The notes beneath the pieces were generated by a model, which saw nothing but the letters and a program-made list of their open reading frames with translations, was not told the DNA's origin and ran no database searches. A DNA stretch of 33,964 nt from Escherichia coli. Lineage in GTDB: Bacteria; Pseudomonadota; Gammaproteobacteria; Enterobacterales; Enterobacteriaceae. The stretch lies in NCBI RefSeq assembly GCF_003334385.1, contig NZ_QOWN01000048.1; one strand, written 5' to 3'. Both the position numbers and the translations under genes were made by a program. Positions 28,577 to 29,314 of this stretch are shown here, piece by piece (position 1 is the first letter of the stretch; every line of letters starts with the position of its first letter).

Positions 28577-29314
28577 TCAGAATTTCAGGCCAATGCCTGC
28601 AAATAAACCATCAGTTTTCCAGTCGCCAGAGCCTGAGCTTTCATAAGTGACGTCCATAGTAACACTTTCATTGAAGTTAAATTGCGCGCCGACAGACCAT
28701 GCAATAGACGTTTTTTTGGTGCTGTTACTTTCAGAAAAACTACCGGCACCATGATTAAGATTGTCGTTAATTTTCAAGCCAGTGGTGACTTTTGCAACCC
28801 CCATGCCAGCCATTGCATACACACTGAGGTATTCGTTAAACCGCCACGAAGGACCGGATAGTAGACTCCAGTAATTAGCCCTGATATCAGTTCTCGCTGA
28901 AGCTGCCGGGTTTTTTACCTCTCGTGATGGATCGGAAGGCTTAACATCAATAAATGCCTGCGCATTAGTCATGGAGCGCGCCCATGTAAAAGAGGCTATA
29001 ACACCCAGTTCATCAGTTATCTCGTAACGATACCTGATGCTCATCCCCAGGGGGCTTTTGGCTGTGCCGTCATGCCCCCGGGCAATAGCATTTTCGTATT
29101 CAGCTGATGAATTAAAATGGTTTACGTTTACAACATTCCTGAACGTATCCCGGTTATAAACACCCGCGTCTCTAACAAAATCCTTCAGCCCGGGGAAGCG
29201 TATGTGTGCAAACCCGAGAGATACCGTACTATCGCCTGATGCTGCATTTACCTGTGCAGTTAAGCAACTCATCACCAGAACTGCACACGCAAAAAATTTC
29301 ATGATACTTTTCAT
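28577..29314 (-). CDS. lom: Lom/Ail/PagC-family outer-membrane beta-barrel protein
   Basis: Signal peptide MKFFACAVLVMSCLTAQVNA and a C-terminus ...YESSGSGDWKTDGLFAGIGLKF that closely parallels lambda Lom (...YEGSGSGDWRTDGFIVGVGYKF). Confidence 0.8.
   Translation of the reverse strand: MKSIMKFFACAVLVMSCLTAQVNAASGDSTVSLGFAHIRFPGLKDFVRDAGVYNRDTFRNVVNVNHFNSSAEYENAIARGHDGTAKSPLGMSIRYRYEITDELGVIASFTWARSMTNAQAFIDVKPSDPSREVKNPAASARTDIRANYWSLLSGPSWRFNEYLSVYAMAGMGVAKVTTGLKINDNLNHGAGSFSESNSTKKTSIAWSVGAQFNFNESVTMDVTYESSGSGDWKTDGLFAGIGLKF

Follow-up and report, generated by a model that had tools for sequence, protein, structure and literature searches.

The lom gene of a Sepvirinae prophage in Escherichia coli: a probable surface protein within an exchangeable allele cassette

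Does a reading frame of 245 codons in the late operon of an Escherichia coli prophage encode an intact outer-membrane protein, is this protein made by the lysogen, and does it serve the bacterium or the phage? We address these questions in a window of 33,964 nucleotides (the whole stretch of DNA that was analysed), the left third of which is E. coli chromosome with ynfC, ynfE and ynfF. In our reading, which we hold with good confidence as a whole, the gene is the lom of a Sepvirinae prophage of the short-tailed, BamA-targeting 933W/phi24B type, it is built as a self-contained unit, and its product would remodel the cell surface. As such it is a known and ordinary prophage accessory gene, and neither its family nor its mechanism is new, because the same protein is present in public databases and an orthologue has been studied experimentally. 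The refinements added here are the insertion in loop 1, the cassette-like replacement of alleles, an unconserved upstream region and the apparent presence of the gene throughout the lineage.

Family assignment and genomic setting

The reading frame opens with ATG and runs for 245 codons without frameshift or internal stop, and the bounds in the list of open reading frames are exactly those of the lom CDS in Table 1. Its product matches the Pfam family Ail_Lom (PF06316) with an i-E of 1.9e-28, residues 89-245 aligning to positions 49-199 of the 199-position model, and it matches PHROG 108, 'Lom outer membrane protein', over the full length of that family (E 4.4e-70; 1-199 of 199). That the Pfam alignment begins only at residue 89 is explained by the loop-1 segment, residues 41-88. 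A search of solved structures returned lambda Lom (9wso_C) with an E of 3.5e-22, followed by Yersinia Ail (E 4e-14) and E. coli OmpX (E 2.5e-9). These matches are far above chance, and an identical protein is already found in NCBI under the name 'Ail/Lom family outer membrane beta-barrel protein', which RefSeq uses as well. Membership of the Lom/Ail family, with which a preliminary description of this locus had started, is borne out by PF06316, PHROG 108 and lambda Lom, and also by the fold described below. Within a library of 1.84 billion representatives, the long form of Lom is a small group (5 clusters at E<=1e-30, 238 at E<=1e-3), and the same library holds a few full-length relatives of 211-250 aa, at 35-39% identity.

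Over the 1.2 kb around lom, phage Lyz12581Vzw (Sepvirinae, Oslovirus) shares 99.5% identity with the window, as do about twenty Stx2a-converting phages, and prophages of complete E. coli genomes reach up to 99.9%. Gene order is kept in every relative examined, and all genes lie on one strand (Table 1). Upstream, the gene for the 422-aa tail needle or fiber belongs to PHROG 496, and lom is the third gene after it. The receptor of this phage group is BamA (PMC12502783). When counts of phage records are compared (counts, that is, rather than record lists), the long Lom occurs in 188 records, and the adjoining 208-aa gene in 186 at no less than 80% identity and in 2 more at 60-80%; by these counts, no phage record with this tail module appears to lack lom.

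The closest known counterparts are the Lom proteins of phi24B, 933W and VT2-Sakai. They are 244-245 aa long, carry the same loop-1 insertion, are encoded between the 208-aa gene and hok and are followed by an identical terminator, but their signal peptides and loops have diverged, dS is about 1.3 and the upstream region cannot be aligned. Lambda Lom (9wso chain C; NP_040601) is a more distant member of the same Pfam and PHROG families, with 33% identity over residues 90-245 and a shared C-terminal motif, YE-SGSGDW...G-G-KF. Its gene, too, lies just past the tail-tip genes in the late operon, with a hairpin and T-run 27 nt after the stop. Unlike the window Lom, the lambda protein has 206 aa, is without about 32 residues of loop 1, and has a loop 2 that is about 12 residues shorter and a loop 3 that is about 6 residues longer. 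The phages differ as well, lambda being a siphophage that uses LamB and the phage type of the window a podophage that uses BamA. The 9wso entry was not returned by a search with lambda J, and a text search for '9WSO' gave no relevant paper.

Table 1. Features of the lom locus and amino-acid identity of the module's proteins between the window and five phages with divergent lom alleles
Feature	Position	Strand	Description or basis	Identity to window
lom CDS (Lom)	28577..29314	minus	245 aa including signal peptide; TGA stop at 28577-28579	63-74%
Predicted Sec signal peptide, residues 1-24	29243..29314	minus	signal peptidase I cut after V-N-A, read from the translation	
Extracellular loop 1 (predicted), residues 41-88	29051..29194	minus	alignments and AlphaFold2; segment pLDDT 71-91	
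Barrel core (predicted): strands 2-8, loops 2-4, periplasmic turns, terminal GIGLKF	28580..29050	minus	model, Foldseek, invariant columns	
Intrinsic terminator	28525..28554	minus	AACCCGC-TGTGATG-GCGGGTT then TTTTTTGTT; 22 nt past the lom stop	
AT-rich intergenic region upstream of lom	29315..29393	minus	79 bp, 31.6% GC; presumed promoter location	
Variable lom cassette: upstream region, ORF, short 3' UTR	28555..29414	minus	near-identical backbone on both sides	
Genes before lom, in order		same as lom	567-aa internal virion/nozzle-like protein, 422-aa tail needle/fiber, 93-aa ORF, 208-aa ORF	
Genes after lom, in order		same as lom	hok; 133-, 218-, 150-, 83- and 420-aa ORFs; 2792-aa giant protein	
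Tail needle (422 aa)				87-100%
93-aa ORF				91-100%
208-aa ORF				94-100%
Hok				86-100%
133-aa ORF				95-99%
218-aa ORF				95-100%

Signal peptide, barrel and loop 1

The N-terminus of the protein, MKSIMKFFACAVLVMSCLTAQVNA followed by ASGD, displays the features of a Sec signal peptide: Lys2 and Lys6, a hydrophobic core with a mean Kyte-Doolittle value of 2.3 over residues 7-20, and V-N-A preceding the cut. Among 18 homologues, A24 and G27 do not vary, and AlphaFold2 models residues 2-19 as a helix with low confidence. As read from the sequence, the precursor would be exported by Sec and cut after Ala24. Two other readings of this region were rejected. Cys17 lies in a lipoprotein-like context (V-M-S-C), but it is not conserved, whereas A24 and the following strand 1 are invariant. 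A start at Met5 disagrees with the alignment of Met1 to the starts of all five alleles and with an AGGA/GAGA-like element 10-12 nt upstream of Met1.

At the other end, the protein closes with GIGLKF, in which G240, G242, K244 and F245 are the same in all 18 sequences aligned and which has the form of a BAM beta-signal with C-terminal aromatic residue; as in other members of the family, the BAM machinery would insert Lom via this terminal Phe motif. An AlphaFold2 model built from an alignment of 18 sequences (mean pLDDT 85, pTM 0.75) places eight long strands at residues 29-39, 89-98, 103-126, 138-158, 163-184, 193-213, 218-227 and 234-244, and one extra short strand within loop 1. The best solved structures found by Foldseek are Ail (3qrc; TM 0.84) and OmpX of E. 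coli (1qj9; TM 0.83), both target-normalised, and a search of viral folds in BFVD yielded nothing beyond distant generic barrels (TM <=0.6). The model thus describes Lom as an eight-stranded antiparallel barrel of the OmpX/Ail type. Sequence identity to Ail and OmpX is low in comparison (21-26%), and these proteins have mature lengths of about 150 residues with short loops, against 221 residues for mature Lom. The intact signal peptide and the intact beta-barrel C-terminus that the preliminary description had claimed are both upheld, the former by its n-h-c layout and the V-N-A/A junction with invariant A24, the latter by the conserved GIGLKF end. Disruption of the barrel, which had been set beforehand as an observation that would speak against the claim, is not what we find, as all eight strands are modelled and the fold matches that of Ail and OmpX.

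Loop 1 of this Lom carries an insertion of roughly 45 residues that lambda Lom does not have, about 32 aligned residues being without a counterpart there. The segment is predicted to begin with a helix at residues 42-67 (pLDDT about 85-91) and to continue into the extra strand at residues 73-81. No other part of mature Lom varies as much between alleles, amino-acid identity here being 50-56%. According to the model, all four loops of the barrel would face outward, the loop-1 insertion bearing a predicted amphipathic helix, and we infer that the variable loops are exposed at the surface.

Exchange of lom alleles

An alignment of 5.7 kb around lom compared the window with four other Sepvirinae phages. 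Against the DNA of PhiR5_2, identity is 95-100% from 31700 to 29415 and again below 28529, and drops to 53-85% within 29414-28530; the variable cassette is limited by the stem of the terminator at its right and by the stop codon of the 208-aa gene at its left. Across the five phages with divergent alleles, lom is the single hypervariable gene in an otherwise conserved module (Table 1).

Alleles of lom differ strongly at synonymous sites (dS 0.7-1.3), between flanks of about 100% identity. Against three diverged alleles, mature Lom has a dN/dS of 0.15-0.19, which by region amounts to 0.09-0.13 in strands and turns and 0.20-0.30 in loops, with a peak of 0.24-0.41 in loop 1. The combination of a dS of 0.7-1.3 with a dN/dS of about 0.17 points to old, functional alleles that were swapped whole by recombination and kept under purifying selection. 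Positive selection as the source of the variability was also considered and rejected, since no region has a dN/dS as high as 0.45 and dS approaches saturation.

The exchange also seems to proceed independently of the neighbouring tail-needle gene. PhiR5_2 is nearly identical to the window in the proteins that neighbour Lom (99-100%), with 99.8% in the needle and 100% each in the 93-aa and 208-aa proteins, but its Lom is just 70.6% identical; Lyz12581Vzw, conversely, has a Lom that is 99.2% identical beside a needle of 91.0%. Judged from these sequences, the lom allele is uncoupled from the adjacent needle allele.

This pattern bears on the claim that lom is cargo of lysogenic conversion. The word holds in so far as lom is a discrete, recombining cassette of lower GC content (45.7% in lom and 31.6% in the upstream spacer, compared with 52% in the prophage part; two ORFs upstream of lom are also low, at 41.6-41.8%). 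It fails in so far as the gene is not sporadic, being apparently present in all records with the tail module (188 against 188). Comparison with morons, as defined for genes of the HK97 gp15 type (PMC3594210), leads to a similarly mixed picture. Like a moron, lom lies between conserved late-operon genes, is closed by a terminator of its own and is lower in GC than its surroundings, and an orthologue is expressed from the prophage. Unlike a moron, it is not a presence/absence addition, as every related phage record seems to have it. A promoter of its own, a further mark of morons, did not emerge as a consensus site upstream of lom, and the lambda lom control was equally negative. The apparent lineage-wide presence suggests a benefit to the phage and not an optional cargo for host fitness.

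Expression in the lysogen and the function of Lom

The terminator that had been attributed to lom is indeed there. A terminator scan places a hairpin at 28554..28534 on the minus strand, with 9 pairs (5 G-C), a loop of 3 nt and a T-run after it, and the element is base-for-base the same in five alleles whose Lom proteins are only 63-74% identical. The hairpin is part of the minimum free energy structure, although its energy alone is unexceptional against shuffled sequences (z -1.7), and we therefore base the call on motif and conservation and not on hairpin energy. An Rfam match to 'Trp_leader' at 28527-28607 was set aside: at 22.7 bits against a gathering threshold of 41, it merely reflects the lom terminator hairpin and its T-run.

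Taken together, the AT-rich upstream region, the reading frame and the terminator make lom a self-contained unit inside the late operon for tail and ejection proteins. By analogy with the phi24B orthologue, transcripts starting at lom would end at its terminator and allow expression from the repressed prophage, and during lytic growth, as in lambdoid phages generally, antiterminated late transcripts would continue across lom. The phi24B protein is 64% identical to the window Lom, and the phi24B allele is the only one among Lom proteins of the 933W/VT2-Sakai type for which expression data are published. It was recovered with lysogen-specific antisera, and by qPCR it was found 'strongly expressed in lysogen cultures', at a level that induction did not alter significantly (PMC3342100); later RNA-seq 'fully support[ed]' its constitutive expression (PMC4651098). 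Lambda lom is expressed in lysogens as well (PMC7067206).

The earlier view that the gene is probably expressed in the lysogen thus draws its support from the published data on phi24B, whereas the sequence of the window itself offers none. The 79-bp upstream region is not alignable between alleles (44-53% identity to phi24B), and a scan for sigma-70-like sites found none at 9/12 matches, and none at 8/12 over 160 bp. Since the upstream region cannot be aligned and is without a recognisable sigma-70 promoter, the transfer from phi24B to the window allele is by analogy, and we infer on this basis that the window allele is expressed in the lysogen.

The same upstream region could be read to mean that the window allele is silent in the repressed prophage and made only on the late lytic transcript, in which case lom would not be a gene of lysogenic conversion here. 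The lack of a sigma-70-like site in 160 bp even at 8/12, an upstream region unrelated to that of the phi24B allele, and the position of lom within, and co-oriented with, the late operon would all agree with such silence. We nevertheless consider it quite unlikely. The scan is uninformative because it comes up empty upstream of lambda lom too, a gene known to be active in lysogens (PMC7067206); a conserved terminator within a late operon that is read through fits only a locally started transcript; and an AT-rich spacer of 79 bp is typical of promoter regions. Either way, constitutive expression of the kind described for phi24B should not be assumed for all lom alleles, because each brings its own, unrelated upstream region.

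Turning to what the protein does, we favour the view that Lom remodels the cell surface, with the variable loops as its working part; most likely, Lom changes what the surface of the lysogen binds. The preliminary description had mentioned adhesion and serum resistance of homologues. Serum resistance is a property of Rck, Ail and lambda Bor; of the two traits, adhesion alone has to our knowledge been reported for lambda Lom. Papers that cite the work relate that adhesion was observed in one study of 1997, and they likewise relate a localisation of lambda Lom to the outer membrane. The customary interpretation of Lom, in terms of adhesion or of the fitness of the lysogen, goes back to lambda Lom. 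The adhesion part of the statement can therefore stand for lambda Lom, but serum resistance does not carry over. Rck/PagC of Salmonella (NF011777) is the best NCBIfam match, over residues 88-245, yet Lom is not an equivalog, as its 87.4 bits lie below the curated cut-off of 258 bits; for the OmpX equivalog NF006917 the score is 55.4 bits against a curated cut-off of 176 bits. Since these scores are far below the cut-offs, serum resistance is not inferable by orthology. The identity of Lom amounts to 24-26% with Ail and to 33% with lambda Lom, confined to residues 90-245, and no functional residue is transferable; the loop residues of Ail that act in adhesion and serum resistance are not mappable onto the window Lom.

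An alternative puts the phage itself in the place of the beneficiary: Lom would make carrier cells, or cells in which the phage replicates, adsorb fewer BamA-targeting phages of its own or a related kind, and any effects on virulence would be incidental. This would amount to self-exclusion, or to sparing progeny a dead-end adsorption. Lom shares with receptor-masking proteins (over-expressed lambda Lom and OMPTell, and by analogy Cor and Llp) a position beside receptor-binding tail genes. The receptor-blocking genes cor and llp sit in that kind of position. In the present prophage, lom follows closely on the tail needle and on putative receptor-binding genes (PMC12309495). Lambda Lom, when over-expressed, provides a strong, lambda-specific defence that blocks lambda-vir, for which a late self-exclusion was proposed, and related eight-stranded barrels block adsorption (2025 preprint, PMC11888456). 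That these podophages bind BamA (PMC12502783), that each of the 188 records of phages with the module apparently includes lom and that the phi24B orthologue is on in lysogens and after induction are likewise compatible with a service to the phage. Yet lambda Lom at prophage level fails to stop lambda-vir (PMC11888456). Moreover, lom alleles do not follow those of the needle, as PhiR5_2 and Lyz12581Vzw illustrate, and multiple infection of a single cell by phi24B is reported to be frequent (PMC3430580); the uncoupling and the multiple infection argue against a tight receptor-mask model. On balance, we regard a primary service to the phage as unlikely.

A more specific proposal is that the long Lom of the Sepvirinae is kept by the phage and that its loop-1 helix hinders BamA-dependent adsorption, for instance by shielding surface loops of BamA. 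We offer this as a speculation with a small chance of being correct. If it were true, progeny would be spared dead-end adsorption to infected cells and debris, and the turnover of alleles would stem from an arms race between Stx-type phages that share a host. Beyond that proposal, the Sepvirinae Lom offers a sensible way to ask whether Lom proteins benefit the host through adhesion or the phage through control of adsorption, because it is apparently universal, hypervariable and exchanged independently of the needle gene, and because lambda Lom has been reported to block lambda.

Lom might instead be a minor component of the virion or be associated with the tail, and not a protein of the cell surface: the gene sits among structural genes, and Lom peptides were detected in preparations of purified phi24B virions, about as abundant as the scarcer structural proteins (preprint 10.64898/2026.04.10.717836). 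The authors of the same preprint call Lom a contaminant, and it is absent from the cryo-EM model. A predicted cleavable Sec signal, a membrane-barrel fold and a BAM-type C-terminus also speak against a place in the virion, which we consider highly improbable; these features fit outer-membrane vesicles or debris that co-purify with the phage particles.

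The hok/sok-type module and its neighbours 3' of lom

Immediately 3' of the terminator of lom, the gene for the Ail/Lom-family outer-membrane barrel protein, lies a hok/sok-type type I toxin-antitoxin module (28204-28520, minus strand), which is kept in every relative examined. The Hok ORF matches a phage protein family, and it reaches 38 bits against the NCBIfam HokA model, below the cut-off of 89; the Rfam sok match stays below its gathering score. A candidate promoter, TTGCCC-N17-TAGATT, begins just past the T-run of lom (see table for the other parts).

In phi24B, a related Sepvirinae phage, the lysogen-antiserum clones CM19 and CM23 represent the homologues of hok and of the 133-aa ORF, found just 3' of lom (PMC3342100). 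Since these clones map here and a second terminator-like hairpin follows the 133-aa ORF, lom, hok and the 133-aa ORF may together constitute a small island with expression in the lysogen.

Further along the same strand, an 83-aa glycine-rich ORF carries a bacteriocin annotation, and phi24B virion preparations also yielded a "homolog of a bacteriocin" (preprint 10.64898/2026.04.10.717836). The giant 2792-aa ORF is the last large gene ahead of the prophage end; its phi24B equivalent (CDS 49148-57571) was matched by the clones CM7 and CM13, obtained with antiserum against lysogen cultures, and its expression is tied to induction (PMC3342100).

Features of the window discussed in the text
Feature	Position	Strand	Assignment
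Integrase-like ORF, 431 aa	462-1757	plus	tyrosine recombinase/integrase-like; weak XerC/XerD-type matches
ynfE	7118..9544		
ynfF	9602..12028		
2792-aa ORF	16550-24928	minus	RefSeq "LPD38 domain-containing protein"
83-aa ORF	26286-26537	minus	RefSeq "bacteriocin"; PHROG 594, unknown function
Second terminator-like hairpin and T-run	27694..27675	minus	3' of the 133-aa ORF
133-aa ORF	28147..27746	minus	
Hok ORF, 46 aa	28344..28204	minus	PHROG 251 "MokW-like host killing", E 2.8e-24
sok match	28493..28333	minus	Rfam; 42 bits, gathering score 59; E 2.3e-7
93-aa ORF	within 29394-30298	minus	PHROG 557 "outer membrane protein"
208-aa ORF	within 29394-30298	minus	PHROG 425 "membrane associated protein"

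Lom, its relatives and the tail needle

The Lom protein of phage lambda has a solved structure, deposited as a single entry (PDB 9wso, matched here through chain C) in which two chains carry the lambda Lom sequence. Lambda J is not one of the chains of 9wso, an entry that a search with J did not return, and a text search for "9WSO" found no paper describing the lambda Lom structure.

Through its C-terminal 60-150 residues, Lom aligns at 44-49% identity with the C-termini of far longer proteins (376-547 aa; P0056, P0057, P0070). Residues 206-245 are also 57.5% identical to the 3' end (OM475427.1 18675-18794) of a phage D2 gene that bears the annotation "host specificity protein J". These alignments suggest remnants or fusions of lom at the ends of tail-tip genes.

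Two ORFs of low GC (41.6-41.8%) separate the tail needle gene from lom, and the longer of the two products, of 208 aa, has relatives at 42-59% identity in lytic Dhillonvirus and JenP1-type siphophages. A cryo-EM preprint describes unassigned density at the needle tip of phi24B, of which the 93-aa and 208-aa proteins could be the source.

The prophage end and the left part of the window

The junction between host and prophage lies within 7118-16550. Past ynfF, the place of ynfG is taken by phage-type ORFs, namely an unassigned 263-aa ORF, a PAPS-reductase-like ORF of 408 aa (13931..15157) and ORFs of 214 and 174 aa, after which comes the 2792-aa virion protein. Because phage-type ORFs rather than ynfG follow ynfF, the prophage appears to end inside the ynfEFGH operon, just past ynfF. 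Near the window's left edge, distant from this end of the Sepvirinae prophage, the integrase-like ORF adjoins a gene for a ManD-type dehydratase and may be part of another integrated element.
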